From the NCBI GenBank assembly GCA_964016885.1, contig OZ024741.1, positions 162,874,001-162,938,000 on the forward strand: a stretch of 64,000 nucleotides of DNA, written 5' to 3'. Position numbers and translations under genes: made by a program. Positions within the stretch are counted from its first letter, which is position 1. Each line of letters starts with the position of its first letter. Under the pieces are notes generated by a model. It saw only the letters and a program-made list of their open reading frames with translations. It had not been told where the DNA came from and did not search any database. The DNA is from Eledone cirrhosa. Taxonomy: Eukaryota. Positions 2,164-55,708 of this stretch are shown here, piece by piece.

Positions 2164-2166
<3 letters not shown>

Positions 2167-2501: not shown

Positions 2502-2511
2502 TTATATACAT

Positions 2512-2563
<52 letters not shown>

Positions 2564-18915: not shown

Positions 18916-18917
18916 AC

Positions 18918-18956
<39 letters not shown>

Positions 18957-18993
18957 GAGGGAGATCGGTGAGAAGGCACAACAACAGACTGAT

Positions 18994-21385: not shown

Positions 21386-21740
21386 AGGCTGCAGGTAGTG
21401 GCTTGATATTCAATCCAACGGACTTTCCAGTTAACCAACATCAATGACTGAGATTCAAGGAATAACAATAACAATAATAATAATAATAATGATTTCTTTA
21501 TTAACCACAAGGGTTTACATAAAGTAGACATTAAGGACAGTGCAGGACAATGCAGGACGGTACAAATGGGCATTTCTGCGTGTAAAAAACAAAAACAGAG
21601 GATGTAACAAAAAATAACAATGAAAAATTCCCCAATAGGGGGCAGACTTCGGAGGGACATTTGTGGAGAAAGCCCAGTAAAAAGCCACAATGACCCTGAC
21701 CACCAAGGCAAGTGCCCTCTCCCAGTTTTCCACCTTTAAT

Positions 21741-23915
21741 TTACAGATATATACTCAGAGTAGGCCCATTCACTCGGGCCATTCTTGCTTCTCTCACCCA
21801 TCTTTCAACAAAATGCTGGGAAGAGAGCACTTCCCTCTCTACTCTGATTTTCCTTTTCAAATGAAATTTGAAAAAGTCAATCAGAGCATCACCGAAGAGG
21901 TAAGTGCTCGTCTTCAGCCCTTTCAAACGTGTCCACCATACTATCTCTTTCACCATGTCCACCAGGCAGATAAAAACTGCCTGCCCTTCCCGGCTAAAGG
22001 AGGAGGGCGGGGCAATCCTCACGATGGACTCAGATGATAGCCGGATCCGTCCTAAACGCGACAGCAGGTGTTCGACATAAACCCACAAGTCAGCAATTTT
22101 CGGACACTGGACGAGTGCGTGCAGGACGGTTTCGTCGCCCTGCGCGCATCTCGGACATGCCCGGCTGACGGCACCTCCATGCCTGTAGAGTTTATCCCGA
22201 ACTGGCAAGGCTCCTCGGTAGCACTGCCAGGCCAGAGATTTCTGGAAGTTGTCCATAGGCCCTGGCCCGAAAGTTCTTCCGAAGAGATTGGCTAGTTGAT
22301 TTTCGTCGACGCCTAGAGTTTCCCCAAGTACGTCGTCGCTCTTCCCCTCCACTAATCCTCTATAGAACGCCGAGGTGGAGTTTCCACCGATCACATTGCC
22401 CGATTGGTCGAGGGCTGTGAGCGCCTGAAGACATTCCAGTCTCCAGGCGCTCCCTCTCGGTCTTCGCTTGACCCAGGACTGCAGCTCCGTCAAGGAAACG
22501 AGCTGGGGAAAAACGCGTCTAGCAAACGGCGGCCACACCTGATCACCGTCGAGGAAGAGGTGGAGATGTCGTAGCCTGAGCGCGTGCCTGCGCATCATCA
22601 GCCAAGGCATGCCCAGCCCTCCACGTAGCGGGTGTTGACAACAGATGGACCGCCTGACCATCGGAGCACGTCCCTTCCACAAAAAGCGAAAGAGCAAACG
22701 CTCCAGCGCAGTCAGGCGAGGCTTAGGACAAGGTACGACGGTTAGGCGGTAGCAAATGACAGACGCGATGTACGCGTTAGCCACCTCCGCTCGACCTTTC
22801 AGGGATAGCTTCCTCTCCGCCCATTTCTGGGTGAGAGAAGCCACCCTGCTCGTCATCTCGTCCCAGTTTTTGTCCGTCTGGAGGTCCGGACCGAACCAGA
22901 CCCCTAGCAATTTAACCGGTCCGTCCGTCCAGCGCCCGACGACGCTGTTGGACGGCATGGACCTGCCTCTCCAGGTGCCGAGCTGCAGGCCCACTGACTT
23001 TTCCTGGTTGATCATTGCTCCTGTCACCGCTTCGTATTCTCTTAGAGTAGTGCCGATCGCCTCGATGTGTTTGGCGTTCGACACCACTACGGTGACATCG
23101 TCCGCATATGCTGACACGGATCTTCCGCATCCTAGTTCGCGCGGGACTCCCCTCAACGTCTCCAGTTTGTGCAGTAATGGCTCGAGAGTCAATACGTACA
23201 AGAGGGACGAGAGGGGACATCCTTGGCGGACCGAGCGCATGATGTTGAACGGTTCCGACAGGTGACCGTTCACTCTCACCACAGAGCAGATGTCGCTGTG
23301 CATGGCAGCGATCCAGCCTCTGAAGACGGGCCCAAAGCCAGCCGCCCTCAGGACTGCCGCTAGGTAACGATGGTCGACCCTATCGAAAGCTTTCGACTGA
23401 TCTAAATTGATCAAGGACCCACCCGTGCCAGGTTCCTTAGCTACCCTCTCTATGATGTATCGCATGAGGTGGAGGTTGTCGTGGATGGATCTGTCGGGAA
23501 TGGCGCATGTCTGCGCCTCTCCCACCAGACCACCAACGACAAGCGACAACCTCTTTGCTAGCACCTTGGCCAAAATCTTGAACTCTGTGTTTAGCAGAGT
23601 TATGGGCCGGCAATTGTCTATGTTATCCCCCTTGTTCGGATCCTTTCTCAGCAGTGCCACCGCTCCTCGGCTCACAGAACTGGGAATTCTCCCGTTCTGT
23701 TGCCAGTTGCAGTAGACGTCCGCCAAGAGGCCTCCGAACAAGTCTGGCATCTGTACGTAAAGTTTATAGGGCAGACCATCCAAACCAGGCGATTTACCCC
23801 TTGTGCAGCCAGTCATTGCCTCCCTTACTTCAGCGGCTGTTATCGGCTTTTCGCAACACTTCGCCTCAGTGGCCGAGAGCCGCGGCAGTCCGTCGAGGTA
23901 GACACTAAAGTCCAT
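21741..23915 (-). CDS. Tx1 ORF2, RT and C-terminal zinc-finger part
   Basis: KSPGLDGLP, LDQSKAFDRVDH, SVRQGCPLS, AYADD, CPRC..ETVLHALVQC. Confidence 0.9.
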   Translation of the reverse strand: MDFSVYLDGLPRLSATEAKCCEKPITAAEVREAMTGCTRGKSPGLDGLPYKLYVQMPDLFGGLLADVYCNWQQNGRIPSSVSRGAVALLRKDPNKGDNIDNCRPITLLNTEFKILAKVLAKRLSLVVGGLVGEAQTCAIPDRSIHDNLHLMRYIIERVAKEPGTGGSLINLDQSKAFDRVDHRYLAAVLRAAGFGPVFRGWIAAMHSDICSVVRVNGHLSEPFNIMRSVRQGCPLSSLLYVLTLEPLLHKLETLRGVPRELGCGRSVSAYADDVTVVVSNAKHIEAIGTTLREYEAVTGAMINQEKSVGLQLGTWRGRSMPSNSVVGRWTDGPVKLLGVWFGPDLQTDKNWDEMTSRVASLTQKWAERKLSLKGRAEVANAYIASVICYRLTVVPCPKPRLTALERLLFRFLWKGRAPMVRRSICCQHPLRGGLGMPWLMMRRHALRLRHLHLFLDGDQVWPPFARRVFPQLVSLTELQSWVKRRPRGSAWRLECLQALTALDQSGNVIGGNSTSAFYRGLVEGKSDDVLGETLGVDENQLANLFGRTFGPGPMDNFQKSLAWQCYRGALPVRDKLYRHGGAVSRACPRCAQGDETVLHALVQCPKIADLWVYVEHLLSRLGRIRLSSESIVRIAPPSSFSREGQAVFICLVDMVKEIVWWTRLKGLKTSTYLFGDALIDFFKFHLKRKIRVEREVLSSQHFVERWVREARMARVNGPTLSIYL

Positions 23916-25159
23916 CCCTCTACCCGGCCCACCGCTGCCCCGAACAGCTGAGCGAAGTGTCGCTGAAAAGCTTCACACATTTGCCCGGGATCGAGTAGCA
24001 TGCGCCCGTCGTGGTCCACCAAAGACCGGATCGTGTCTTTGTTGCCACGACGCGCCTCCGCCACTCGGGCCCATTGGACGGCTTTCGTCCCCTCGTGTCT
24101 GAGAGCACGCACCCTTGCTCTGACAACGCAGCCTTCGTGCTTTGCATTGAAGAATTGGTCAAGGGCCAATTTCGCCGCAAGCACGTCGGTCGCAATGCCT
24201 TTGCTAAGCGCCTCGTCTAATTTTCTAACTAGTTCTCCCTCTGCTCTATTTTTCTCTATTGCTAAAGCCTTACTAAACCTAATCGATTCTATTCTAATCG
24301 CTCTTTTCAGAGCAAACCACCACTTGTTGTTGACGATGGCCCCCGTCAACGCCCGCTTAACTAGTTCGCTAATCCGGTCTCTGTAGGCCTTGCGCGCTGG
24401 TAAGGACGCGTTTAGCTTCCAGTAGCCGGGTCCTCGTCTATGAAGCCTATCTAAGTCAAGCACACAGATCACGAATTTGTGGTCCGTGTAGCTGACTATC
24501 TTGAATTGTGGACAGCCTATGCTAGACCTATCTATTTCCCTACAAAATACTCTATCTAGATATGATCTGGATGACCCTATGCGGTTTGTCCAAGTCCACA
24601 TTGGCACATTCGGGAAATCCAATCGGTACCTGTCAGACAGTTCAAAACGCCTGAGCAGGTTGGTGAGGCTCTTGCACCCTCCACCCCTATCCGCTAATCC
24701 CACACAGTCCCAGCGTGCATCTAAGATCCTGTTCCAGTCGCCCACTAACACTAAAGAGCGGGACGTTCCAAGAAAGGTCTCCAGACGCCGGAAGAAATCA
24801 GGCCGCCCTGCTCCTGTCGGGGCATAGACGGCCACTAGCCTGAAAGCTTGCCCGTCTCCGCTAGTCACGTCCAGCACCACCAGCTTACCCTCTGGGTCCA
24901 GGAAGATGGCCCGTATGGCGAGATCCAAACCTCTCCGAAAAAGCACAGCAACTCCTCCACCGGATCCCGGACGGCTGGGAGATGCGTACACATCGTAGCC
25001 GCCGAAGATCGGTGCGAAGGCCCGTGCTTCGAAGATTCTGGTCTCGCTGATGGCCACTACATCTATGTTTAGTGACCTGAGGTCGTTGAGCAGGTGACCC
25101 TGCTTCCATGACGACCCCAAGCCACGCGCATTGATGCTGCCTATTCTGAGTGAGGTCAT
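23840..25159 (-). CDS. Tx1 ORF2, APE endonuclease part (one frameshift near 23920 joins it to the RT)
   Basis: SINARG, ISET, VYAP, GDWN, LDRVF, TDH, GPGYWKLN. Confidence 0.9.
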   Translation of the reverse strand: MTSLRIGSINARGLGSSWKQGHLLNDLRSLNIDVVAISETRIFEARAFAPIFGGYDVYASPSRPGSGGGVAVLFRRGLDLAIRAIFLDPEGKLVVLDVTSGDGQAFRLVAVYAPTGAGRPDFFRRLETFLGTSRSLVLVGDWNRILDARWDCVGLADRGGGCKSLTNLLRRFELSDRYRLDFPNVPMWTWTNRIGSSRSYLDRVFCREIDRSSIGCPQFKIVSYTDHKFVICVLDLDRLHRRGPGYWKLNASLPARKAYRDRISELVKRALTGAIVNNKWWFALKRAIRIESIRFSKALAIEKNRAEGELVRKLDEALSKGIATDVLAAKLALDQFFNAKHEGCVVRARVRALRHEGTKAVQWARVAEARRGNKDTIRSLVDHDGRMLLDPGQMCEAFQRHFAQLFGAAVGRVEGWTLVSTSTDCRGSRPLRRSVAKSR

Positions 25160-25194
25160 GTTTAAAATAGAGTGGAAAAGATGGGAAAGACCAC

Positions 25195-26481
25195 TTACCG
25201 TACTTTTGGTAGAGGAGGGATGGTTTTTACATCCCTTTTCACTTGATCGTCTGGTGAAGGGACCGTTGAATCGTCCCTTCGGCTGGTCGTCGGCTCTTCT
25301 AAGAGAATGTCTGAGTATACTCTTCGATTGATGGTTCCTCCTAGGTCCCTGAAATCACCAACTGCGTTGGGGAATTTCGTTTTAATGTTTGTGTATTGTT
25401 TCTGTGCTATTTTTAGCAGTCTTATGTTAGTTGGCGTTTTGATTGGTGCTGGTATTATGTAGTCCTGTTGTGAAATGTCTGTGTGTTCAATTATGTAAGT
25501 CATTAGTTTCTTGTTGTGTGTGTTTATTGCCGTGCATTTGTTTTTCTGGGGGTGGGGTGTGGTTCTGCTATTTTCTTGTCGTTGTTGCTGGGTGTGTGTG
25601 TTTTGTTGTTGTGTTTGCGATGTTGGTGCTTGTGGTGGTGGTGTTGAAGGTGTTGTTGGCGGTGGGGTTGTCGCCAGTGGTGATGGTGGTGCTAGTGTGG
25701 GTGGTGATGGTGTTGGTGTTGTTGCTGCTGTGGGTCTCTTTGCAGTAGACTTTACCCTTTTTTCATTTCTTTCCTCCCTTTTCAAAGGCGACGATGCGCT
25801 GCTTCTGCGTTTGTGCCTTCTTACGACCTTTTGCCATCTCTCTCCCACCTCACACTCCATGTCTGATTCTGTGAGGTCGGGGAGGGGTACCAGCTCCACT
25901 CTTTCACTTGTTGTTGTTGGTGATGTTTGCACTGGAGTCTCTGTTGCAGCTGCATTTGGTATTGCTGTTGTTGTTGTTAGTATTTCCACTGCTGCTGCTG
26001 TTTTTGATTTCCGTGGAGTGGGTATGGGTGCCACGGGCCTATCGTTCCTGGTTGCCGCTTGTCCTGTTGCTGGTAGCTGTGGAGCCGGATTCGGAAGGAG
26101 GGGGGTTTTCTCCTTTCTCAGGGTCTTCTCGTTGCAGAAGGCCCTGAGGTGAGTCTTCGATCCACAGCGAAAGCATTTCGGGCGTTTGCCCTCAACACTT
26201 ATGGGCAGTTGAGTGCCGTTATCGAAGTCTATCACATCCGGGATAGCTTCGATGCACTCCTGGTTGGTTTGGATTAGCATCTCAATGGAGGAGCCGACCC
26301 AATCTTCTCTTACTTTTTTCTGTACTTGCAGTACAGTTGTTTTGTCCTCGATTCCGACGAGGACAGACGCGGCCAGCCAAGAAGGGGTCATTCCGGGGGG
26401 GACGTGGGTCAGTTTGACCCTCACAATTTTTTGCCCGCAGTAGGAGGGCACCAACACCATTTCCTCGCTCCTTAGGGTCAC
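25195..26481 (-). CDS. Tx1 ORF1, C-terminal part with CCHC zinc knuckle
   Basis: CFRCGSKTHLRAFC followed by a Pro/Thr-rich tail. Joins 26282-27337 if one base is removed from the T7 run at 26539-26545. Confidence 0.8.
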   Translation of the reverse strand: MTLRSEEMVLVPSYCGQKIVRVKLTHVPPGMTPSWLAASVLVGIEDKTTVLQVQKKVREDWVGSSIEMLIQTNQECIEAIPDVIDFDNGTQLPISVEGKRPKCFRCGSKTHLRAFCNEKTLRKEKTPLLPNPAPQLPATGQAATRNDRPVAPIPTPRKSKTAAAVEILTTTTAIPNAAATETPVQTSPTTTSERVELVPLPDLTESDMECEVGERWQKVVRRHKRRSSASSPLKREERNEKRVKSTAKRPTAATTPTPSPPTLAPPSPLATTPPPTTPSTPPPQAPTSQTQQQNTHTQQQRQENSRTTPHPQKNKCTAINTHNKKLMTYIIEHTDISQQDYIIPAPIKTPTNIRLLKIAQKQYTNIKTKFPNAVGDFRDLGGTINRRVYSDILLEEPTTSRRDDSTVPSPDDQVKRDVKTIPPLPKVR

Positions 26482-27337
26482 TACTGATTGGGCCTTTGCC
26501 TCCTGGGGTGTGGCAAAAAGTACGTCTACGGTGGCATATTTTTTTGCCTCGGGTGATGTGCGTTTTCCGCTGCCACACAGACCCCAAGGCTTTTTGTATT
26601 TGGGCCTCTGTGGCTCTTTCCACCCTACGGGATTTTGTACTTACTGTACGGTACGTGACCGTACAGTGCTCTTGGGTTTCGAAAAAATTTTCCGCTGCCT
26701 TGCAGATTGCTCGGTGTCCGTTCTTTGTCACCATCTTCTTCGCTTCCTCTAATTCCTCATTTGTTATGAGGATTGTTTCCAAGTTTTTCGCAATACCTGC
26801 AAATGAGATTGGTTTTTCTCTGCTGTTGTTGTTGTCGTCAGAGCTGCTGGTACTTTTGTTGTTGCTGCAGGTACTACGACTACTGCCTCCGCCGCTGTTG
26901 CTGTGGTTGTTGTTGGTGTTGCTGCTGCTAATGCTGTTGTTGTTTATGCTGCTGGTGATGCTGTTGCGGCTGCTACTGTTGTTTTCATTGTCACTGTTGC
27001 TGTTGTTATTACGGCTGCTACTGCTATTATTCCTGACGTCAGACGAATGAACTGGGTTTTCGTATTTCCCGCACACCTGTTTCGTCGCTGTCGTCGTCGT
27101 CGTGGAGAAACCTTGCACGCTTTGCACGAGACTTTTCTTATCTTTCGTCACTTGCGAAAGAGAAGGGAGGGAGAGAGACACATTTAAAGAAGGGAGGGAG
27201 AGAGACAATCTTCTCTCTGCTGTAGTGATGATTGAGGAAGAAGAAGACGGGAATGAGTGGGAGTGACGTATGAAATTTCTTTTTCGTAGCCATGTTGTTT
27301 TTTTGTTTAAAATGAAATTTTGGGTACAAAACCCCAA
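26282..27337 (-). CDS. Tx1 ORF1, N-terminal part (Ser/Asn-rich; true start uncertain)
   Basis: Contains SFAGIAK; lies upstream of the zinc-knuckle ORF; frameshift at RGKK|YATVDV. Confidence 0.65.
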   Translation of the reverse strand: MGFCTQNFILNKKTTWLRKRNFIRHSHSFPSSSSSIITTAERRLSLSLPSLNVSLSLPSLSQVTKDKKSLVQSVQGFSTTTTTATKQVCGKYENPVHSSDVRNNSSSSRNNNSNSDNENNSSSRNSITSSINNNSISSSNTNNNHSNSGGGSSRSTCSNNKSTSSSDDNNNSREKPISFAGIAKNLETILITNEELEEAKKMVTKNGHRAICKAAENFFETQEHCTVTYRTVSTKSRRVERATEAQIQKALGSVWQRKTHITRGKKICHRRRTFCHTPGGKGPISSDPKERGNGVGALLLRAKNCEGQTDPRPPRNDPFLAGRVCPRRNRGQNNCTASTEKSKRRLGRLLH

Positions 27338-27530
27338 TAACTGGTTATTTAACCCCGAAGGGCCAAATAACGGACAGAAAGACCCCTCTCACGAGGAGGA
27401 GGGTGTCTTTATCAACAATTTGGTTCAAGTTTTAAACAATTTACAATTGTTTTAACGGTTAAAAATTACTATACCTTACAGAGCCGAGCCTCCGTCAACC
27501 ATGGCATTCAATAATAATAATAATAATAAT

Positions 27531-29120
27531 ATTATGTGTACTGCAAAAAGTGAGAGCAGGATACGGGTTGGGAAAGGGAGGGCTTACCATCAATCACCTC
27601 CTCTTCATGGACGATCTTAAGCTCTTCGGGAAGAGTGAGAAGGAGTTGGATGTGCTTGTTGACACTGTCCGTATTTTCAGCAATGATATATGTATACAAT
27701 TTGGTATTAGTAAGTGTGGAGTCGTTGTGATGAGGAGGGGTAAGTTGAGCAGAAGTAACGGAATCCAGATACCAACAGGTGAGATGATAAAGGAAATTGT
27801 CTCTGAGGAAGGATACAAGTATTTGGGCGTTCTGGAGGCTGATGACATCAAGAACAAAAAAATGAAGGAATTGATAAGAACTGAATGCCTTCGGAGAGTA
27901 AGGAGCGTATTAAAGTCACATCTGAACAGTAGGAATGCCATAAGTGCAGTAAATTCCCGAGCTGTGTCTATTATTAGGTACAGTGCGGGAATTCTGAGAT
28001 GGAATGTTGCTGAACAAAAAGAAATGGATAGGAAGACTAGGAAGCTATTGACTATCTACAATATGTTCCACAAGAGGAGTGATGTCGATAGACTCTACTT
28101 AAGGAGATCTGAAGATGGAAGAGGTCTTATCAGCATAGAGGACTGTGTTCAGATGGAGAAAAACAACCTATACAAATACGTGACTGATAGTAAGGAGCCA
28201 ATGCTCAGAACTGTACTGAAGGAGGGGACAATAGGCCAGGGGATGTCCAAGGAGGAAATAACATCAAGGAGAAAGAGCAGCCTTCAGGAAAAATCCCTTC
28301 ATAGTACCTTCTTTGAGAAAACTGAATTTAGAGATCCACAGACATGGAACTGGTTGAAAAGAGGAGACCTTAAAAAGGCTACAGAAGGAATGTTAATGGC
28401 TGCGCAGGAGCAGGCCCTCAAAACGAAGTGGTTGAAACACCACATTTACAAGGAGGAGGCTAGCCCACTGTGCAGGATCTGTGGAGAGAGAGAGGAGACT
28501 GTGGCTCACATTGTATCCGAGTGTAAACACCTAGCCCAGACTCACTATAAGGGCTGGAGACATGATGTGATGGGCAGGGTGATCCACTGGCACCTATGCA
28601 AAGTAAACAATTTACCACATTCTGAGAAGTGGTATGAGCATAAGCCAGAGGCGGTGATAGAAAACGATCAGGTGAAGGTGCTGTGGGATTTTAGGATACA
28701 GACGGACAAGAAACTGGAACACAATAGACCTGACCTGGTGGTTTTGGACAAAGAAAAAAGATCGTGCCTGATTGTGGATGTGGCCTGCCCATTCGACACG
28801 AGAGTGCAAGAGAAGGAGAGGGAGAAAATTAACCGATACCAGGACTTAAAGTGGGAGGTAAAAAGGATTTGGAACTGCCATGAAGTCAAAGTGATCCCGA
28901 TTGTCATAGGCGCACTAGGGACTATCTCAAAAAGTTTCCAGGGATGGTTAAAGAAAATTGGCCCCTTCACGCTTTTTGGAACGCTTCAAAAGGCATGCTT
29001 GCTGGGAACAGCAAGAACCCTCCGATACGTCCTGAATATCTGAGGCTGCAGGTAGTGGCTTGATATTCATTTCAATAAACTTTCCAGTTAACTAAAATCA
29101 ATGACTGAGACTCAAAGAGT
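27531..29120 (+). mobile_element. R4/Dong-clade LINE family A, copy 2 (5'-truncated; ORF 27550-29043 open)
   Basis: Near-identical to copy 1 from about 19675 onward. (AAT)n at both ends; a SINE 3' stub at 29165-29182 faces its tail. Confidence 0.93.
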
Positions 29121-30066: not shown

Positions 30067-30668
30067 TTCTTCTGGTTTTATAATTTCACAAATGTTTGCC
30101 AATAGAGAGAGAGAGTCGGTTTCTAACATAGACACAATACTCTCTCATTGGAATTTACACAACATCAACTAGGTAGATATGTATGCATCTCTGCATGCAT
30201 GTGTAGATATTGATGTTATTGTATGTGTGGATGTGTATGTTTTGAGTTGTATGTGTGGATGTGGATGTTTTGAGTTGTATGTGTGCATATGTATATGCTT
30301 TGTATCTGTACATGTGTATATGCAGTTATTAGATGCAAAATCTTAGGAATGTTTTACATATTTTTACTGTTCCATTAATGGATTGTACTTGTAATTTCCT
30401 AACTAGTTGTGTTCTTTCTGTTCCTGTGAAGCCTAGCTTCTCAAGATTTGTATTGAGGCAGTTACTAACATATCCCAGTGCCCCAATAATCACAGGCATA
30501 AATCTGAAGGTGTAATCAGGGTGGAGTATCTGCAGATTTCTCATCAGTTCTGCATAAATATTCTCCTTTTCGCTAATCTTTGATATTATATTGGCATCTG
30601 CTGGAGAGCTAACTTCCACTACTGTGCATGCCTTCTTTTCCCTGTCCCATATCATAATATCTGGTCTA
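30067..30668 (-). mobile_element. Dong-B 3' fragment embedded in (TATG)n
   Basis: ORF 30329-30655 nearly matches the C-terminal part of 3095-3478; (TATG)n on both sides. Confidence 0.9.
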
Positions 30669-34775: not shown

Positions 34776-35191
34776 TCTGGGAGAGATGACCCCTTAGCCT
34801 TTGTCAAGGCAGAATTCTAGGAGAAGGAAAACTCTGATATAACACCTGCAACCCTGATGGTATCCAATGATGTTGACTTGTTCTTCTTTTTGGTAAATAT
34901 CATCTTGGTTAAGAGAGTGGGACTGGCTTTGTGCAGTGCCTTTGCTCACTATAAAAGCTTCACGGCACAGGCATTGCTTTATATCTGGAGATCTCTCTGC
35001 ACTTGTCGTCACATGGTACAATGGGCCCAGCACTATGTGTCAATAATTGTCACAAGTGTAGTGTTTGTACCAGAGTTTTCAAGTCGCTGGCTGGACTAAA
35101 AAGTCACACTCGTTCAGCGCATCGGTAGGGGTTCTCCTACATGGATATAAAGTAGTGGCCGTACTCGAAAACGAGTTGGCAGCCACCACCA
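34776..35191 (+). mobile_element. Non-autonomous RTE-derived element in (TATG)n
   Basis: ctaggagaaggaaaactctg 5'UTR motif; residual C2H2 finger CSVCTRVFKSLAGLKSHTRSAH; 3' stem-loop. Confidence 0.8.
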
Positions 35192-43268: not shown

Positions 43269-43397
43269 TATCTATCTATATATATATATATATATCAACA
43301 GTCGATCGACTTTCGTCAAATCGGACCAAGGAAACAATGTTTCCGTTTCTCTTTTCAATTAGCTGGCGATGTGTATGCATGTATGTATGTATGTATG

Positions 43398-46300
43398 TTC
43401 TTCTGGTTTTATAATTTCACAAATTTTTTCCCAAAAGAGAGAGAGTCGGTTTCTAACATAGACACAAGACTCTCTCATTGGAATTTACACAATCACAACT
43501 AGGTAGATTATGTATGCATGCATGTGTAGATATGGTTGTTATTGTATGTGTGGATGTGTATGTTTTAAGTTGTATGTGTGCATGTGTATATGCTTTGTAT
43601 CTATACATGTATATATGCAGTTATTATATGCAACAGTTTTGGAATGTTTTACATATTTTTACTGTTCCATTAATGGATTGTACTTGTAATTTCCTAAGTA
43701 GATGTGTTCTTTCTGTTCATGTGAAGCCTAGCTTCTCAAGATTTGTATTGAGGCAGTTACTAACATACCCCAGTGCCCCAATAACCACAGGCATAAATCT
43801 AAATGTGTAATCAGGAGGGAGTATCTGTAGATTTTTCATCAGTTCTGCATAATATTCTCCCTTTCGCTAATCTTTGATATTATATTGGCACCTGCTGGGC
43901 AGCTAATTTCCACTACTGTGCATGTTTTCTTCTCCCTGTCCCATATCATAATATCTGGTCTGTTATGCCTGGATTTTATTGGGGTTTTTACTGGAACATT
44001 CCACGAGTACTCTTTCATATTATGTACATGGATGTCTTCCACATTGCTGTAGCTTTTAATGTGTTTATTATCGGGGCTATCTTTTTTACGAACTGCATTG
44101 TACAGTGTTTTGGCCACTACATTATGCCTAATAGGTAGATAGTACCGCGATGACATCTTTGGGCAGCTGCTGATGACATGGGTGATATCCTCGATGTTAG
44201 TTCTGCAGAGCCTGCACTTGTTATCACATCTAGGTGTTTTGCCTGCATCCCTATCTCTTTTGTGAATCAGGTATCTCGTGTTAATCTGCTGTTCTTGGAT
44301 GGCAAAAGCGTATCCTTCAAAGTGGGAGCCAATATAGCGGTTGTTGGTTCAAGATAAACTACTTACGTTATCTATATTACTCTCTCTCTCTCTGGAGCTT
44401 CCTGGCAACAGATCCATGCATGATGTTTTGCTGATAAGCATGCAGCTTTTAAGCCATGGATTCACTGTGATACTGCTGAGCGACTTCCCTGGGTGTGAGT
44501 TTTTGATTATCACACAGGGAATAACTCTCGAGGAGTTCCTTCCCAACTCTCATGATCTTATCTGTTTCATGCAGATAGACTTGCTCTAGAGACGGGCTCC
44601 TACGCTTCGAGTTTCGTAGATGTTGTCGGAGAGATATGATGCTACATTCAAAAATTGTCTGGACTGATGTTAGGCCGCTGCCTCCCTGCTTACGTTTCAA
44701 GTAAAGGCGGTCTATGTTACTGTTGATGTGGAGGTCTCCAGTGTTGTTTAGTATTTTTCGAGTTCCAACATCAACTGCTCAGATTTCGTCTATCGTCCAA
44801 TTGAGTATTCCAAACGTTGGTGTTAGGACAGGCACAGCAACCAGATTGTGAGCCATTGTTTTGTTTTGAGCAGAGAGTTCCGCTGACCAAATCATTCTTA
44901 TTCCGGTGTAGTATTCCCTGGTTACGCGTTTCTTATTACAGATACCATTATAGGATATGTTCTCATCTATCCCCAGGTATATGTAGTAGTCCTCATCAGA
45001 TATCGGAGAAACAGTTAGGCCATTGATGACAATGTTGCTAGATTGGGTTGTTGTTTTTCCTCGCTTTACAGTCATATATGAGCATTTATCTTGGCCAAAC
45101 TCCATTCCTATTCCCAGGTATCTGTAGCAGTCCTCATCAGATATCTGTGAAACAGTTAGGCTATTGATGACAATGTTGCTAGATTGGGTTGTTGTTTTTC
45201 TCCGCTTTACAGTCATATATGAACATTTATCTTGGCCAAACTCCATTCCCATATCCTTTGAGAACGTTGTTACCAGGTCAAGATTTTTCTTCATCCCATC
45301 CATGTTCTTGTCATAGAGTTTCAGATCGTCCACAAAGAAATTATGGGTTAGGTTCGTATTTCTGTCCTCCTGTTAGCTAATGATGTATCCCTCACATTTC
45401 TTGAGCAGAAAGGTCAAGGGGTTTAATGACAAGATGAATAATATCACAGAGAGACTGTGCACCCTCTCTGTCTTTAACCTTAGGATAGTAGCCCAAGAAG
45501 AAGACAGCCTCTCTATGGCTCTGACAATAATGTCTGGGACTTTAGCAAGTTGGAGGGCCTCTATCATCCAAGAGTGGGGAACAGAATCGAAAGCTTTCTT
45601 GTAGTCCAGCCAAACTGTAGCCATATTCCTCCTAAGTTGTCGCACCTCCGACATCGCAGTTTTGTTGATTAGGAGTTGTTCAGCACATTCCAAAACCCCT
45701 TTCTTTCTAGCTGCTTGTTCAACTGTGATGATGTTATTATTTTCACAGTGATCTTGGAGGAATATGTTCAGGCAGGCTGTATACATCTTATACATCAGGT
45801 TCTGGCATGCAATGGGTCGGTAGTTTTTTGCCAAGTGGGTGTCTTTGTTCTTGGGGACCAGTAATGTTTGTGCTAATGTCAACCATTCTGGTATAAGTGT
45901 ATCGCCCTTAAGAACTTGTTGGTAGATGTCAGTAAGATACCTCCAATAGAATATCAGTTTTTTGTACCAGTAGCCGACAATCATGTCTCTTCCTGGTGTT
46001 TTCTTATCTTGGAGTTTTCCTATCACAGTCTACCCTCACTTATTTCGTATGTTTTTGTTGTAGTGTAGGAGCAATAGTTCTTTCGGATTTCTCTTAGCCA
46101 CACTGCATCATGGTTGAAATTCTTCTTTTCACCCCATATTTTGCTCCAAAAGGAATCTATGTCTCTCTGGAATGGGGCCTGAGTGACACTTATTATTTTT
46201 TTCTTCATATCTCTATAGACTGATGTTTGGTTTCGTCTGAATCTTTTATTAGGCACTTTTCTCTCATCTACTTTCTTCAGGTATCGGCGTTTTTCGCTGA

Positions 46301-47580
46301 CAGCTCTCACTTCTTATTTGAGGGTGATCAGCTTATATTGAAGAGTTCTGGTTCTACTGTTACCAAACATCGTCTCTATTTTATTTTTCACTTTTTGTTG
46401 GTGAGGAGTGAGGTTTTTTTTGTGTTTGTTTGCATGTAAGGAACATTGTCACATATCCTATGGTTTTTCGTAGGTCAGCAATCTTTTTTTCTATTTTAGT
46501 TATATATGATGGTATTTTTGGTGGTGTTCTGTTCTTGTTAATATCTCTGCTATCACCAAGATAAAGCTTCACTGTCGTTGCTAAGGCATATAAACAGGCG
46601 TTGATTTGCCAAAATGTTGGGGTTTTTATCCGTCGTAAATATTCATCCCTATTTCGCCAATAACACGTAATATTTCATTAGATGTTTTTTTTATTTATTA
46701 AACATTGTCGTTTTAATACGTTCAGCAAGAGAGATATTTATACATGAATTAATTTCTCTCTGGAAGATTTCGTTGAGGGAAATTTTCAATTGTTTATACT
46801 TTTGATTATTATCATTATCGATAGTATTTTCCACAACAGTCGAGGTAGACTCGGATGGTACACGTGGTGTCAAATTTCTTCGATCATTATTATTATTTCT
46901 TCGATTATTATTATTATCGATAGTGTTTTCCCCAGCATTCGAGGTAGTCTTAGATGGTACAGGTGGTGTCAAGTTTCTTACAGGCATAGTTGTTTCAAGG
47001 CGCTGTTCGACCTGGTTGTTAGGAAGTCTAGTAGCATGGCGACCTGTAGCTCATGTTGTTGATCCCATATTTGTTGTTAGCGACTTATAATTAATACTAT
47101 TTATCTTATTTTTACGTTCAACAAACGTCGCTTGTTGGCGTAAATGTTTCGCTGTGAAATAATTTAGCCCTGGGTGCATTTCGTCCCAGTGTAGCTTCAT
47201 TCTATTCATATAGCCAATGTAGGGATTGTTTTTTGCCATTTTATAACAATTAAATAAATCATTATTAAGTTCACAACTCCAAGAGAAATGCAATTTATAA
47301 TTTCGGTTTCTTCTGTAGCTACAACTGAATAAAGTTTGTTAACCTTTCTTGTTTGTCTTCCTTAATTTTGTTGTTAATGTTGTGTTCAGCTATGCTGTTT
47401 GTAGCAAATACTTGTAAAATGAATTATGTATTTAGTCTGATATCTCTACGAATTCGAATAAAAAGTGTCTTCAGAAGATATAGTTGACTATAGTTGTGGC
47501 ATTTACTGTCGGTGATAGTATTCATCTTAAGTTTAATAAATAGTCTCCCACGCCAAAATAGGCGACTCATCGCGTTGACT
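43398..47580 (-). mobile_element. Dong-B, near full-length but degenerate, in (TATG)n
   Basis: N-terminal domain WS..LN.DL..CY..GYMNRM..W, RT, CCHC and RLE pieces in order; (TATG)n on both sides. Confidence 0.9.
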
Positions 47581-47769
47581 GTATGTATGTATGTATGTAT
47601 GTATGTATGTATGTATGTATGTATGTATGTATGTATGTATGTATGCATGTATGTATGCGGAAGAACTCATAAGGGTCAACGGCTATCCAAAAGTGTGTAA
47701 ATATGTCTATACACGTGTACATGTGTGTGTGTGTATGTGTATATGCATGAGTGCATGTGTATTTATATG

Positions 47770-48125
47770 CGCGGGGACATAGAAATAGTCGGGCTGGACA
47801 CCCGATCGCGCGGTTAAACCACTGGGAGTGAAGGACCCCTAGACTTTCTCAGGGCATTCTTCTAGGTGAAGGCAACTCAGGAAACTGGGATAACTCCGAT
47901 ATAAAACCTGCGGCTCAGTAGTTACCGATGATGTTGGTCTTTTCTTCTTTTCGTGTTATAGCTACTGTCGCTCAGAGAGAGGGATTGGCTCAGTGCACAG
48001 TCTTTCGTCACTTTAAAAATAATCTCCACGCACAGGCATTGCACGATAGAATTAATTAATTATTATTAATAATGGTATATCGTGCAATGGCCATACTCGA
48101 TAACGAGGGGGGCAACCATCATCAT
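47770..48125 (+). mobile_element. Non-autonomous RTE-derived element
   Basis: Same 5'UTR motifs as 6551 and 34776; 3' end ggccatactcgataacgag..catcatcat runs into (TATG)n. Confidence 0.7.
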
Positions 48126-48182
48126 GTATGCATGTATGTATGTATGTATGTATGTATGTATGTATGTATGTATGTATGTATG

Positions 48183-48410
48183 TTCTCATTTTCTTCTTCT
48201 TTTTTTTATTTTTTTGACCGGCCACCTTCCTGGTGGCAAGGTTGTAAAAGAAAAGAAATTGTCATCCCTTGAATCGCAAGAATGTTTTGCAAATTTTGAA
48301 GGTGCCAGCTGTCGCAGCCATTTGTAGACTATGAATTAGGGAGCTGCGCTTTTTGTCCGCAAATCCAAGTTCAGTCATACTTTGGTCCAAGCGGGTTGGT
48401 ATATAACCCG

Positions 48411-48411
<1 letters not shown>
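48183..48411 (-). mobile_element. Dong-C 3' fragment in (TATG)n
   Basis: Matches 50192-50422; (TATG)n on both sides. Confidence 0.85.
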
Positions 48412-48442
<31 letters not shown>

Positions 48443-48690
48443 TGTATGTATGTATGTATGTATGTATGTATGCATGTATGTATTTATGTGTGTATGCATG
48501 GATGTATGCATGGATGTATGCATGATTTATGCATGGATGTATGTATGTAAATATGTATGTATGAAACATGTGTGTATGTATGTATACATGTATTTATGTA
48601 TGTATGCATGTAGGTATGCATGGCTGTATGTCTGTGTGTAAATATGTATGTATGCATGGATGTATGTATGTGTGTAAATATGTATGTATG

Positions 48691-50180
48691 TTCGTCTGGT
48701 TTTGTAATTTCACAAATGTTTACCAAGAGAGAGAGAGAGTCGGTTTCTAACATAGACACAAGACTCTCTCATTGGAATTTACACGACATCAACTAGGTAG
48801 GTATGTATGCATGCATGCCTGCATGCATGTGTAGGTATGGATGTTTTGTATGTGTGCATCTGTATACGCTTTGTATCTGTACATGTGTATATGCAGTTAC
48901 TAGATGCAACATTTTTGGAATGTTTTACATATTATAACTGTTCCATTAATGGATTGTACTTGTAATTTCCTACATTCCACCAGTACTCTTTCATATTATG
49001 TGCATGGATGTCTTCCACATTGCTGTAGCTTTTAATGTGTTTATTATCAGGGCTATCTTTTTTACGGATTGCATTGTACAGTGTTTTGGCCACTACATCA
49101 TGCCTCATAGGTAGATAGTACCTGCGAGGATATCTTTGGACACCTGCTGATGACATGGGTGATATCTTTGATGTTAATTCTGCAGAGTCTGCACTTGTTA
49201 TCACATCTAGGTGTTTTGCCTGCATCCCTATCTCTTTTGTGAATCAGGTATTTCGTGTTAATTTCCTGTTCTTGGATTGCAAAAGCGTATCCTTCAAAGT
49301 GGGAGCCAATATAGCGGTTGTTGGTCCAAGATAGACTACTTTGCTTTTCTATATTACTCTCACTCTGGAGCTTCCTGGCAACATATCCATGCATGATTTT
49401 TTGCTGATAAGCATGCAGTTTTTCATCCATGGATTCACTGCGATACTGCTGAGCGACTTCCCTGGGTGTGAGTCTTTGATTATCACACAGGGAATATCTC
49501 TCGAGGAGTTCCTTCCCAACTCTCATTATCTTATCTGTTTCATGCAGATAGACTTGCTCGAGAGACGGGCTCCTACGCTTCGAGGTTCGTAGATGTTGTC
49601 GGAGGGATTATATGGGACATTCAAATGCTGTCTGGACTGATGTTAGGCCTCTGCCTCCCTGCTTACGTTTCAAGTAAAGGCGGTCTATGTCACTGTTCAT
49701 GTGGAAGTGTCCGGTGTTGTTTAGTATTTTTCCAGTTCCAACATCAACTGCTCGGATTTCGTCTATCGTCCAATTGAGTATTCCAAACGTTGGTGTTAGG
49801 ACAGGCACAGCAAACACATTGTGAGCCATTGTTTTATTGTGTGCAGAGAGTTCCGATGACCAAATCTTTCTTAATCGGGTGTAGTATTCCCTGGTTACAC
49901 GTTCCTTATTACAGATACCATTATAGGATATTTTCTCATCTATACCCAGGTATCTGTAGCAGTCCTCATCAGATATCGGTGAAACAGTTAGGCCATTGAT
50001 GACACTGTTGCTAGATTGGGTTGTTGTTTTACCCCACTTTACAGTCATATATGAGCATTTATCTTGGCCAAACTCCATTCCCATATCCTTTGAGAACGTT
50101 GTAACCAGGACAAGATTTTCTTCATCCCATCCTTGTTCTTAGCATAGAGTTTCAGATCATCCACAAAGAAATTATGGGTT
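48691..50180 (-). mobile_element. Dong-B, 5'-truncated, RLE core deleted near 48970
   Basis: Matches the 43398 copy; YWWNV is fused directly to the C-terminal segment; TATG flanks. Confidence 0.9.
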
Positions 50181-50191
50181 ATGTATGTATG

Positions 50192-53100
50192 TTATCTCTT
50201 TCTCTTAATTTCGAGTATATTTTTTTGACCGGCCACCTTCCTGGTGGCAAGGTTGTAAAAGAAAAGAAATTGTCATCCCTTGAATCGCAAGAATGTTTTG
50301 CAAATTTTGAAGGTGCCAGCTATCGCAGCCATTTGTGAACTATGAATTAGGGAGCTGCGCTCTTTGTCCGCAAATCCAAGTTCAGTCATACTTTGGTCCA
50401 AGCGGGTTGGTATATAACCCGTAGTTCCAATAATGATGGGTATGAAGATAAAAGTGTATCTTGGATACTGGATTTGTAAACTCCTCATCAATGGTCCGTA
50501 GATGTCCTCTTTCTCCTGTATTTTTCTGACAACGTTTACATCAAGTGGGCAGCTGATCTCCACAAAAGAACACGTTTTCAATGTGTGGTCCCAAACAACA
50601 ATATCAGGCCGGTTGTGCTGTGCTTTAATTTGGTGGCAGTTTTTATTTTCAGGTTCCACTAGTATTCCTTATTGCCATCTGTCTCAATATATTCTTCCTC
50701 GTTTGTTGTTAATTTTGTTTTCCGAAGTGCGTTCCAGATGGTTCTAGCTATCCCATCGTGTCTTCTGGGGAGGTAGTAGCGAGATGACATTCTTTCGCAG
50801 CTGGCAACAATGTGGCTTACATCCTCGATCTTTGTTTTACAAAGCCTACATTTATTGTCAGCTGATGGCCCTCCCCTTTTGTGCAGCAGATATTTGGTAG
50901 GGATTTCTTGTTCCTGTATTGCATAGAGATATCCCTCAAGGTGTGATCTCATAAACTTGTCGGAACTCCATGCCAGGATTTTTGAGTGGTTTATCCTCTC
51001 TATAGTCTTTGTTTTACGTCTCAAGTATCCATGCACAACTTTTTCTGTAAATTGGTCAATTTTTTCATCTTGTTTGAACATTGAATAGGATCTTCCGATT
51101 TCTCTGGGTGAGAGATTTATATCAGGCTTTATTCCATATCTCTCCTCCAGATCAGTGGCTATTCTAATGATATTTTTTTTTTCATGCTCATAAACCTGGG
51201 CAAGATGGTTGGCAACCTTTTTCCTCTGTTGAAGATGTTGCTTCAGTGTTACTATCCGGGTCTCATATGATGTTAATATGGATTTTAGACCCCGGCCACC
51301 TTCCTTGCGTGAGAAGTATAGCCTATCCACATCAGAATTGATGTTAAAGTTCCCAGTAACACTGAGAAGTTTGCGAGTTCTAACATCCATCTCACTTACT
51401 TCTTGCAATGACCAGTTCAGCAGGGCAAATGTTGACGTTAGAATTGGCACAGCATAAGTATTGTGGGCATAAGTGTTGTACGCTGACAGTTCTGATGACC
51501 ATATTTTCTTTACTCTTCTGAGGTATTCAGTTCTGGTTCTCTCCTTATTTATGGGTCCATCATATCTGACATTCTCATCCTGTCCAAGATATCTGTAGTT
51601 GTCAACTGACTGTAGAGGTTGTATTGTTAGGCCGTTCTTCCCTAGATTTCTAGAGGAGGGCACAGCTCTTCCACGTTTTACTGCCAAATATGCACACTTG
51701 GACTCACCAAATTTCATTTTGATGTCTGTTGAAAATTGTGTAATGAGGTCCAATTGTTTCTTGATGTCATTGATATTTGGCCCATACAACTTCAGGTCAT
51801 CAACAAAGAAAAGATGGGAGATACTTCTGGACCCACTTCTTTGTCTACCTTGTTTCCTGAGTAGGTAAGATAGTGGATTTAGTGAGAGAACAAAGAGTAG
51901 CACTGACAAGCTATCACCCTGAAATATGCCCTTCTGATAATGTATCTAATCAGTCTTAACTTGCTCCTTCTCACCTCTAAGGATCAAATTGGTGTACCAG
52001 TTCTTGGTCAGACGTTCAACAGAAGCTACCAGTGGTTGTGGGACTTTGGCTAACTGTAAAGCCTTAACAATCCACCCATGAGGTACACTATCAAATGCTT
52101 TTTGATAGTCCAGCCACACCACAGTCATGTTTCTGCGATTCTTTGTTGTTTTTTCTTGAATCATTTTATAAGTTAATAGGTTATCTATGCAACCCCACAC
52201 CTCCCTCTTTCCACCAGCTTGCTCAGGTGTTATGATGTTGTTGGTAGCACAGTGATCCTCTAAGAACAGGTTAAGGCACCCAGTATATAATTTATACATG
52301 ATGTTTTGGCAGGCTATTGGGCGGTAATTTTTAGCAAGGGTCGTTTGGCTATTTTGGGGAATGAGGAGAGTAGTGGCAGTTGATAACCATCTGGGCAGTT
52401 CTTGGGTGCCTTTAATGGTTTCTGTAAACAGCCGTATGAGATCTTGCCGATAGAAAGTGAAATTCTTCAACCAGTATCCTGTAATGAGGTCTGGGCCTGG
52501 TGATTTCCTATTCGACATTTTATGTAGAGCTGTTTCCAGTATTGACCCATTTATGTCATATTGTTTTGTCTCGACATGTTGGCAGTAGTCCTGTTCCAGT
52601 TCTTTTAGCCAATTAGTTTGTCTGTTGAATCCGTCAATCGTTTCCCATACAGATCTCCAGTAGCCCTCAACCTGTTCTTTTGAAGGGGTGTCATTTACAG
52701 GGATTGAGCTTTTGCCACTGAAGCTGCGATAAACTGATTTAGGATCTCTGGCAAACAATCTATTTAGCACTTGTCGTTTATGTGCGGTTGACTTATATTT
52801 TAGTCTTTCTGTTGTAGCTGTGAGTTGTTGTTTCAACTGGTGTAATTTGGAGTTTAAAGTTTTAAATTTTGTATCTCCAAATCGTCTCTCTAACTTTTTT
52901 TTTTAGGTCTTCCTGGTGTCGTGTGAAGTTGCTCTCTATGTTGAATTTCATAACGATTGCGATGTGTGAGATACTCCATCTCAGGGACAAAACTTTGCTT
53001 TTTAAATTTCGCATCCACGCTGGTTCAGGATTTTTGTTTGTATCTTGATTGCGTGGTTTTAGATGTTTGTTATATGATAGTAATGTGACAGCTGAAACAT

Positions 53101-53793
53101 ATCACAAAATGTTAAGCGTTTCAAATGTTTCTACACTCTTAGATCGTATAGCCTTCAGATAATTGTCAGCTATTTCGTTCACCGCTTCCAATTCCAATTT
53201 AGTGGGTTCTTTACTGATTCTTGGGTTGTATAGTCTGTCACTCACATTAAGGCTGTGTATCTCTTGAAACATATCGTCCCATATCACTTGTAAGGTGCCC
53301 ACAAGTTTTTGGTGTTCTGTTTGTACAGTAGAGTCATGAATTTCAGCCTCGTTGTTGATGTGGTGACAATTACTACTAGAGTTAGCTGACCATTCTCACT
53401 GTTCTTCAGTGGAAGTGTGATGGATTTCAGCAAAATTGTTGGTGAGCTGTTCACTGTTAGATTTAGCTGGCCATTCTCTTTATCTGTCAGTGGAGGTGGG
53501 GTGGTTGTCTACAAGGGCTGTATTTGTAGTATGATACGTTTTGCCTGTTCATTTAAATGCTTTCGAGAAAAGTCTAATTCTGGGTGTTTGGAGTTCCATA
53601 AAGTTTTTAGCCTTTGCATAAAAAACCGAACTTTTGGGGTTCAAAGTGTTTGTATGCTTCATATAATTCTTTGTTAAGCTCGTAGCTCCACTGTATACAA
53701 CGGTTGTAGTTGCGATTTGGTCGAAGGAGACTTGTACGTTTTGCCATGATGAGTTCGTCTATTCACTAATATTTTGTATTTATTTTTCAATTT
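50192..53793 (-). mobile_element. R4/Dong-clade LINE family C, near full-length with frameshifts, in (TATG)n
   Basis: ATG at 53747 (MAKRTSLLRP..QWSYELN), NYRPIAC, WLDYQKAFDSVPH, HLFFVDDLKLY, CRLC..HIVASC, RHD, RPD..VEISCP. Confidence 0.92.
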
Positions 53794-53853
53794 GTATGTA
53801 TGTATGTATGTATGTATGTATGTATGTATGTATGTATGTATGTATGTATGTAT

Positions 53854-54116
53854 GGTTAAGAGAGTGGGACTGGCTTTGTGCAGTGCCTTTGGTCACTATA
53901 AAAGCTTCACGGCACAGGCATTGCTTTATATCTGGAGATCTCTCTGCACTTGTCGTCACATGGTACTATGGGCCCAGCACTATGTGTCAATAATTGTCAC
54001 AAGTGTAGTGTTTGTACCAGAGTTTTCAGGTCACACTCGTTCAGCGCATCGGTAGGGGTTCTCCTACATGGATATAAAGTAGTAGCCGTACTCGAAAACG
54101 AGTTGGCAGCCACCAT
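53854..54116 (+). mobile_element. Non-autonomous RTE-derived element, 5'-truncated, in (TATG)n
   Basis: Nearly identical to 34908-35191 apart from a short deletion. Confidence 0.85.
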
Positions 54117-54237
54117 GTATGTATGTATGTATGTATGTATGTATGTATGTATGTATGTATGTATGTATGTATGTATGTATGTATGTATGTATGCATGCAT
54201 GTATGCATGCATATATGTATGTATGCATGCATGCATG

Positions 54238-55338
54238 TTTTTCTTTCTCTTAATTTCGAGTACATCTTTGACTGGCCACCTTCATGGTGACAACGTTGTA
54301 AAAGAAATGAAATAGTCATCCTTGAATCACAAGAATGTTTTTCAAATTTTAGAGGTGCCAGCTTTCGCAGCCGTTTGTCGTCTATGTATTAGGGAGCTGG
54401 GTTCTTTGTGCACAGATCCAAGTTCAGTTATACTTTGGTCCAAGCGGGCTGGTATATAACCTGTAGCTCCAACAATGATGGGTATGAAGCTGGAGGTGTA
54501 TCTTGGATACTGGATCTGCAAACTCCTCATCAATGGTCCGTAGATGTCCTCCCTCTCCTGTATTTGTCTTACAACTTTTACATCAAGTGGGCAGCTGATC
54601 TCTACAGCAGAGCGCGTTTTCAATGTGTGGCCCCAAACAACAATATCAGGCCGGTTGTGCTTTAATTTGGTGGCAGTTTTTATATTCAGGTTCCACCAGT
54701 ATTCTTTAGTACCATCTATCTTAACATATTCCTTATCGTTTGTTTTTAATTTTGTTTTCCTAAGTGCGCTTCAGATGGTTCTAGCTATCACATCATGTCT
54801 CATGGGGAAGTAGTAGCGATACGACATTCTTTCACAGTTGGCAACAATGTGGTTAACATCTTCGATCTTTGTTTTACAAAGCCTACATTTATTGTCGACT
54901 GATGGCCCTCCTCTTTTGTGTAGCAGATATTTGGTAGGGATTTCTTGTTCCTGTACTGGATAGAGAAATCCTTCAAGGTTGGATGTCATAAACTTGTCGG
55001 AATTCTATGCCAGGCTCTTTGTAGGATTTATTCCCTCTATGGTCTGTGTGTTTCGTTTCAGACACCCATACACAACTTTCTCTGTAAATTGGTCTATGTT
55101 TTTATCCTGTTCGAATATTGAATAGGATCTTCCAATTTCCCTGGGTGAGAAATCTATATAAGGCCTTATTCCATATCTCTCCTCCAGATCAGTGACTATC
55201 CTAATGATATTATTTCCTTCATGTTCATAGACCTGGGCAAGATGGTTGCTGATCTTTCTCTTTTGCTGAAAATGTGGTTTCAGTGTTACTATTCAGGTCT
55301 CGTATGATGTTAATATGGATCTTAGACCCCGGCCACCC
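54238..55338 (-). mobile_element. Dong-C subfamily, 5'-truncated copy
   Basis: Homologous to 50192-51300 but clearly diverged; 3' end in a TATG/CATG tract. Confidence 0.88.
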
Positions 55339-55344
55339 ATATAT

Positions 55345-55591
55345 AAACGAGGATGTTTCGTTTACATATGAAACATATTTATTGCGTATCGATTTGTTAC
55401 GCGCGTTTCGCAGAGGATTGACTCAAGGTGACCCATAGGAGTTACGGATCTAACTCAGGTATCGATATACTCGTTAGGCTGGTGATGTGACAAAAATATA
55501 TCTTTTGTCACATCATTTTGTCACGTGAAATACGCGTAACAGGTCGATACACAATAAATATTTTTCATATGTAAGCCAAACTTCCTCGTTT
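55345..55591. mobile_element. MITE or foldback element with long imperfect TIRs
   Basis: TIRs of about 65 bp starting aaacgagga..ttacatatgaaa..tatcga..gttacgcg; internal 12-bp hairpin gatgtgacaaaa/ttttgtcacatc. Confidence 0.75.
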
Positions 55592-55708
55592 TTTTCCTAT
55601 TATATACACTCTGCCTGTGCATAGAGTGTTTGATGTGGTACCTACGCCAGTATTTCACCTTACTACCCACACACTATACACACGCACACACACATATATC
55701 TATATATA

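Follow-up and report, generated by a model that had tools for sequence, protein, structure and literature searches.

How do seven element pieces come to lie head to tail within one (TACA)n microsatellite over about 12 kb? The stack in question (positions 43372-55338) is part of a 64,000-nt stretch of contig OZ024741.1 (assembly GCA_964016885.1; called the window for simplicity), whose whole-stretch numbering is used throughout. It is built from two LINE (long interspersed nuclear element) families, called B and C, and from pieces of a non-coding element called D; a third LINE family, A, is found elsewhere in the window. Insertion of B and C is repeat-specific and polar, with scattered 5' truncation. 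We consider it likely that B and C are LINEs with a single open reading frame (ORF) and a restriction-like endonuclease (RLE), which reside within (TACA)n at fixed polarity and arrive by nicking of the repeat and reverse transcription primed there. Sequence comparison with relatives further supports a change of target, which appears to extend beyond B and C to a clade with (ACTT)n-flanked elements.

Repeat arrays were located with Tandem Repeats Finder and by direct reading, and element copies were mapped by self-BLAST. All elements of the stack lie on the minus strand, and the repeat, visible as TGTA/ATGT arrays, reads (ACAT)n, equal to (TACA)n, in the sense of the elements. Going down the minus strand from 55338, the order is C copy 3, (ACAT)31, D2, (ACAT)15, C copy 2 and about three ACAT units, then B copy 2, a decayed run of about 70 units and a 229-bp C fragment, and finally (ACAT)15, D1, (ACAT)19, B copy 1, (ACAT)7 and unique DNA. 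The features of the stack, together with the fragments of family B found elsewhere in the window, are:

43372-43398, minus strand: (ACAT)n, flanking B copy 1 at its 3' end and marking the downstream limit of the stack (Tandem Repeats Finder)
43399-47579, minus strand: family B copy 1, 4181 bp, extending to the family 5' end, ORF decayed (self-BLAST)
44967-45249, minus strand: internal tandem duplication of 141 bp in B copy 1
47051-47293, minus strand: coding remnant of the predicted N-terminal Myb/SANT-like domain of B copy 1, aligning with the conserved N-terminal block
47580-47657, minus strand: (ACAT)n separating D1 from B copy 1 (Tandem Repeats Finder)
47658-48123, strand not assigned: D1, a decayed 466-bp D-type non-coding piece with a microsatellite inside (likeness to D judged by eye)
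48124-48183, minus strand: (ACAT)n (Tandem Repeats Finder)
48184-48412, minus strand: 3' fragment of family C, 229 bp, 98% identity to C copy 2 (self-BLAST)
48413-48691, minus strand: (ACAT)n, decayed, about 70 units, 76% matches (Tandem Repeats Finder)
48692-50182, minus strand: family B copy 2, 5'-truncated and, by comparison with copy 1, shortened by an internal deletion (self-BLAST and reading)
50183-50193, minus strand: about three ACAT units linking the 5' end of B copy 2 with the 3' end of C copy 2 (reading)
50194-53792, minus strand: family C copy 2, 3599 bp, ORF fragmented into pieces that bear reverse transcriptase (RT), CCHC motif and RLE
50273-50668, minus strand: RLE region of C copy 2, NRPDIVVWD ... 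VEISCPLD ... KEDIY
53520-53747, minus strand: coding region of the predicted N-terminal Myb/SANT-like domain of C copy 2, frameshifted
53793-53854, minus strand: (ACAT)n separating D2 from C copy 2 (Tandem Repeats Finder)
53855-54114, strand not assigned: D2, the initial 260 bp of the ~599-bp D element
54115-54238, minus strand: (ACAT)n, 31 units (Tandem Repeats Finder)
54239-55338, minus strand: family C copy 3, 5'-truncated, older, 87% identity to copy 2
2922-3714 and 3717-3923, plus strand: two 3' fragments of family B, flanking repeat ACAT on the plus strand
30068-30667, minus strand: 3' fragment of family B between (ATGT)22 and (TATG)17

Two points of the initial annotation of this DNA had to be revised. 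C copy 2, taken there as full length, is short of about 427 bp of 5' untranslated region (UTR) compared with the 4026-bp full-length C, and the stretches 47658-48123 and 53855-54114, regarded as spacer, are instead repeat-flanked pieces of the D element, which had been overlooked. The two N-terminal coding stretches which it had singled out (47051-47293 and 53520-53747) are real, and both are decayed. The 5' end of B copy 1 (GTCAACG) recurs in the genomic copies L023 and L026. At its 5' end (55338), C copy 3 adjoins a ~260-bp inverted-repeat element (55339-55600) which resembles a miniature inverted-repeat transposable element, with terminal inverted repeats AAACGAGGA.GTTT...TATCGA and TATA-rich flanks.

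The copies of B and C in the window carry (ACAT)n at the 3' junction in 8/8 cases and at the 5' junction in 7/8, the sole exception being C copy 3 next to the inverted-repeat element. The strand of the repeat flips with the element, as seen for the plus-strand B copies at 2922-3923, so that polarity is constant. To go beyond the window, 20 copies each of C and B were chosen by a 3'-end search of the 3.0-Gb genome (first-look candidates numbered 164 in C and 2054 in B), a sample biased to young copies, and a 5' flank was scored as repeat if (ACAT)n in the sense of the element made up 80% or more of the 24 nt upstream. In C this held for 16 of the 19 copies that could be scored and in B for 13 of 20, together 29/39, compared with 239 of 15994 24-nt windows (1.5%) in the 64-kb window used as background, which is itself repeat-enriched (binomial P ~6e-45). 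Antisense-only (ACAT)n was found at 0 of 79 flanks. At the 3' side, the initial 12 nt matched (ACAT)n in at least 11 positions in 14/20 C and 17/20 B copies, many tails being short. The 5' truncation points of the sampled copies are scattered from position 1 to 3911. The claims that B and C have (TACA)n at both junctions, that their polarity relative to the repeat is constant and that arbitrary truncation points abut the repeat are thus borne out in the window and in the genome sample alike, and TACA is enriched at 5' junctions elsewhere as well.

Ten intact C copies were fetched in addition to the sample; seven of them extend to the 5' end, and in all seven ATGGCGACC starts the element, a few bases past (ACAT)n. 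Every sampled copy bears a 3' (ACAT)n run in fixed phase (...AGAAGA followed by ACAT in B, ...GAGAAA followed by ACAT in C), which may merely be inherited from the parent copy and carry little information on the cut site. Tandem clusters of C are frequent across the genome; several sampled copies seem to be solitary insertions, with no other element within some kb, that have long (ACAT)n upstream.

Family A provides the contrast within the same genome. Two copies lie in the window:

18955-21459, plus strand: family A, 5'-truncated, (ATA)n upstream and a (TAA)n-type tail
27532-29119, plus strand: family A, 5'-truncated, (AAT)n on both sides

As the initial annotation had it, family A uses (AAT)n: (TAA)n was present at the 3' end of 23/23 copies and, under the strict score, at 6/12 scorable 5' ends, with the repeat 10-15 nt off in two further copies, and (ACAT)n was present at 0/35 flanks. 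Many copies of family A carry a 1141-aa open frame with 99-100% identity. Further repeats lie directly behind family A (TAA)n tails (window positions 18146-18940 and 21491-21620, and the 3' flank of locus L061); one of them is a 190-220-bp tandem unit starting TGTTTCTAC, and another, starting TTTCTTTATTAACCACAAGGG, is present behind two independent family A copies. Additional elements probably share the (TAA)n target with family A. Between both family A copies of the window, a run of long open frames (743, 504, 481 and 368 aa) occupies 21741-27388 on the minus strand.

In both B and C, a single ORF of some 1150 aa codes for a predicted Myb/SANT-like N-terminus, RT, a CCHC motif and an RLE. In the 4026-bp full-length C, the single 1169-aa ORF contains RVT_1 at 475-726 and zf-RVT at 934-999 (Pfam); C-terminal to the RT, the sequence reads CRLCK...H...C and then NRPDIVVWD...VVEISCPLD...K, a PD-(D/E)xK-like arrangement whose RPD...E...K pattern we take to be the restriction-like endonuclease of R2 and R4. 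Pfam detected no apurinic/apyrimidinic endonuclease (APE) domain in the C ORF, where this restriction-like motif C-terminal to the RT is found instead, and the N-terminus of the C ORF has no C2H2 fingers (CCHH pattern). The solved structures nearest to C are R2 proteins (E 2e-29 to 1e-14), which match in the RT region only, and matches in the ESM Atlas were limited to unnamed RT clusters. Many C copies retain a 1174-aa open frame; B is older, with 88-94% identity and few long frames, the longest spanning 1134-1223 aa.

The N-terminal ~80 residues are conserved in the B/C clade, with R12, Y14, W20, G41, K47, W50 and L64 invariant. An AlphaFold2 model of this domain consists of three helices (mean predicted local distance difference test score 81), and its top VIA-align rows are mostly Myb/SANT proteins (Zeste, Z 6.5; TRF1, 5.4; the SANT domain of DMAP1, 5.2; Myb proteins, ~5). 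Pfam gave no meaningful match for the domain. Family A has a homologous N-terminus (by hhalign, 93% probability with E 3.5e-7 and 26% identity across 65 columns). A Myb/SANT-like N-terminus with a DMAP1-type SANT family as best HHpred match has been described in R4/Dong (PMC7998251), and the modeled domain of B and C fits this description.

At locus L051 (720-4352), a 1211-aa open frame begins at an ATG in a D element, crosses (ACAT)n, which it translates into YIHT repeats, and goes on into the ORF of a 5'-truncated C copy; read in sense, (ACAT)n is free of stop codons in every frame. A separate family E with a D-type leader, considered for this locus, was rejected, as L051 is a 5'-truncated C copy (99% identity) behind a D element.

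To place B and C among their relatives, metagenome contigs were searched with a profile, which gave 79 loci, and the 44 with an ORF of at least 700 aa were scored for the flanking repeat on the sense strand: 24 had (AAT)n, four (ATT)n, two (ACTT)n and two (AT)n, and none was seen in 12. B and C share 49% identity with each other; with A, and likewise with a multi-copy protein of Bombyx mori (XP_037866951 and its cluster mates), which is distinct from R2Bm, either family shares about 30%. The best named protein relatives belong to Argonauta hians, an octopod. A 66-row tree was computed with a quick IQ-TREE search under LG+G4, with Shimodaira-Hasegawa-like approximate likelihood ratio test (SH-aLRT) support. 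B, C and the (ACTT)n elements, together with an Argonauta protein, make up a 10-row clade (SH-aLRT 100) nested in a 17-row clade (100); an exclusive sister pairing of B and C is not resolved. Of the rows in the tree, the two (ACTT)n loci come closest to B and C (42-44% identity), and one of them, L083, is a complete element bounded by (ACTT)n on either side; L084, outside the tree, has 47% identity, and its contig ends show no repeat. In a 46-row clade (98) are family A, the B. mori protein and the (AAT)n-flanked rows except for one (L104), which branches just outside both the 17-row and the 46-row clades. These two clades are sister groups within a 63-row branch (SH-aLRT 97).

The initial annotation had proposed a target switch within R4/Dong. 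This proposal is supported, since B and C are of the RLE type with (TAA)n-flanked relatives and family A differs from them in target, with the qualification that membership in R4/Dong is indirect. We lean slightly towards a wider version, in which a deep and widespread Dong/R4 branch would have left the ancestral (TAA)n for TACN, that is (TACA)n here and (TACT)n in the relatives, while keeping a homologous Myb-like N-terminus. Beside family A in the (TAA)n-type clade, a sub-branch unites the (ATT)n with the (AT)n elements: L098, L122, L128 and L131 carry sense-strand (ATT)n at the 3' end, and L098 has it at the 5' end as well, which is the (TAA)n microsatellite in opposite polarity, and L134 and L148, neighbour rows of the (ATT)n sub-branch, have (AT)n. 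One outgroup row, L154, is a metagenome RLE element with 25% identity to C, both of whose contig ends seem to resemble 28S rRNA sequence; it may be an rDNA-specific relative, R4- or R2-like.

Several observations weigh against this interpretation of B and C. Ten of the 39 scored 5' flanks are not (ACAT)n; part of these misses are internal deletions or breaks of the alignment chain (L025 and L030 have B sequence just upstream), and L005, L032, L038 and L039 are without explanation. Target-site duplications are inconsistent, a flank duplication of 20-33 bp being present in only about 3 of 18 informative copies. In the tree, the product of a quick LG+G4 search, composition heterogeneity was flagged and two long outgroup branches join each other; it contains no named Dong, R4, Rex6 or HERO sequence, and R4/Dong membership is anchored indirectly by grouping with (TAA)n-flanked elements and the B. 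mori multi-copy protein. The fold matches of the N-terminal domain are middling (Z < 8) and could reflect a common three-helix arrangement, and a Foldseek search of the PDB with the model returned nothing at E <=0.001.

Could the repeats have been supplied by the elements themselves? Each copy has a fixed-phase 3' (ACAT)n run, as in tailed LINEs, and many upstream runs in stacks are the tails of earlier copies; (ACAT)n might then be only element-borne tails, the upstream repeat resulting from chance or regional landing near older copies. We regard this as very improbable given the 29/39 repeat-bearing 5' flanks over a 1.5% background, the complete lack of reversed polarity (0/79) and the 0/35 (ACAT)n flanks of the equally abundant family A; landing in earlier tails would, moreover, amount to repeat recognition anyway. 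It is still harder to credit that the repeats expanded after insertion from short ACAT-like seeds at the element ends: although the 3' UTR of B contains ACAT-like low-complexity sequence and LINE tails are known sources of microsatellites (PMC3812793), long repeat precedes 5' junctions which lie at arbitrary internal positions without an ACAT seed.

A different objection accepts the repeat as target and places B and C in another RLE clade such as HERO, in which case no switch within R4/Dong would have occurred. Some HERO families are reported to target microsatellites (PMC4640811), B and C share no more than about 30% identity with the B. mori protein and the comparison was made without named reference sequences. 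We nevertheless think this unlikely: the N-terminal domain is homologous between B/C and the (TAA)n-specific family A, B and C are without N-terminal C2H2 fingers, and their clade is sister to the one holding nearly all (TAA)n-flanked rows, in the 63-row branch with SH-aLRT 97. In addition, Octopus vulgaris is reported to have 1129 recent Dong-R4 insertions as against 13 of Hero (PMC13282606), which, provided that the host is an octopod, fits the abundance observed in this genome.

The preferred explanation, repeat-specific insertion of B and C, suggests the following mechanism. By analogy with R2, the RLE would nick the TGTA strand, and the freed 3' DNA end would pair with the (ACAU)n tail of the element RNA and prime the cDNA, that is, an R2-like target-primed reverse transcription. 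The repeat would be read by the putative N-terminal Myb/SANT-like domain, perhaps together with the endonuclease. Each insertion would leave repeat on both sides and so provide two new landing sites per copy, which would explain the 12-kb stack of seven pieces. As every insertion would regenerate its own target, microsatellite and elements would amplify each other into multi-kb stacks, which would account for part of the genome structure.

The D element shares the repeat with B and C. It is non-coding, about 599 bp long and has at least 1300 first-look candidates in the genome; pieces are present in the window at 47658-48123 (D1), 53855-54114 (D2) and also 34908-35187, and further copies were inspected at the genomic loci L160-L187. 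A constant GGTGGCTGCC end stands directly behind (ACAT)n in about 16 of 20 fetched copies, the remaining ones starting 1-2 nt further in or showing a substitution, and some copies stand behind an (AT)n-rich repeat. The other end is a constant ...GGTGACCTGAC, followed by (ATAC)n. D1 and D2 retain the GGTGGCTGCC end and lack the GGTGACCTGAC end, as do several genomic copies, and genomic copies break off at 260, ~305-312, 401 and 507. Copying of D in the B/C sense would make these pieces 3'-truncated, a product not normally expected from target-primed reverse transcription; copying in the opposite sense would make them usual 5' truncations, with D using the other strand of the repeat. A D-type 5' stem with G-U pairs was recognized by eye, and the fold is more stable than that of shuffled sequences (z -3.25); the G-U pairs of the terminal stem favour copying in the B/C sense. 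That D might be a LINE leader was rejected, as 7/8 further copies are a discrete ~599-bp element ending in repeat; one copy (L164) extends into a decayed ORF that has three zinc fingers of the C2H2 type.

When the 5' ends of C, B and D2 were searched with Rfam, no match to a hepatitis delta virus (HDV)-family ribozyme was obtained at E <=10; sequence models have difficulty in recognizing this class of ribozyme. For these ends and for the region itself, Rfam returned only microsatellite-like miRNA matches and weak chance matches. An HDV-like double pseudoknot considered for the D 5' stem gave no convincing fit. The first 60 nt of C and of both (ACTT)n relatives (L041, L081, L083) start with a short GC-rich hairpin followed by GTG, exemplified in C by GTCCGA-TAA-TCGGAC-GTG, which may represent an RNA structure conserved at the 5' end.

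For gene insertion at safe sites, R2 and other site-specific RLE retrotransposons are under study, and how they change target is poorly understood. Here one genome holds active-looking lineages of the same architecture, A on (TAA)n and B/C on (TACA)n, a setting suited to domain swaps and binding experiments. If the wider change from (TAA)n to TACN is true, these lineages together with the (ATT)n and (AT)n branches would form a natural specificity-swap series for working out the DNA-reading code of RLE retrotransposons.

Among known systems, Dong of Bombyx mori, DongAg, DongBg and the ostracod Dong1/2 resemble B and C in having a single ORF with RT, CCHC motif and restriction-like endonuclease. 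Dong/R4 elements also share with them the lack of N-terminal zinc fingers, a divergent Myb/SANT-like N-terminus (predicted for B and C), insertion into microsatellites at fixed polarity and 5'-truncated copies. The target of Dong is (TAA)n and that of Waldo, of the R1 clade, is ACAY (PMC3812793), both as stated in the initial annotation; family A has the (TAA)n specificity of Dong sensu stricto, whereas B and C use the tetranucleotide (TACA)n and, unlike Dong, belong to a separate deep clade with (ACTT)n-flanked relatives. Dong and R4 carry an HDV-like self-cleaving ribozyme at the 5' end (PMC3774820), which Rfam did not detect in B and C. In Octopus vulgaris, Dong-R4 comprises five families with 1129 insertions and is abundant and recently active (PMC13282606), and Dong-R4 LINEs are present in other coleoids (PMC8967140); the available text of these two papers describes no target for them (in the former, the word 'target' is absent). 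The suggestion that the (TACA)n specificity may be undescribed holds for the open-access literature searched, in which no ACAT, TACA or CATA target for R4/Dong was found; repeat databases were not covered.

R2 proteins (8gh6, 9nl3, 9dou) are the nearest solved relatives of B and C and the source of the mechanistic analogy, with target-primed reverse transcription from an RLE nick and target reading by an N-terminal Myb domain and zinc fingers; R2 differs in its single 28S rDNA site and its N-terminal C2H2 fingers. The architecture of the Waldo clade comprises two ORFs. Its members WaldoAg1/2 and WaldoFs1 have an ACAY target that includes (ACAT)n, as in B and C (PMC3812793), but an APE-type endonuclease, and they belong to the unrelated R1 clade; the shared ACAT target would be a convergence on the same repeat. 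Togen, a NeSL-related (TG)n-specific element, and the microsatellite-specific HERO families are, like B and C, RLE LINEs with microsatellite targets, to which they changed (PMC4640811), and differ from them in clade and repeat, a distinction drawn from descriptions. Microsatellite-specific LINEs that change target are already known in principle, and the case of B and C is an extension of this behaviour.

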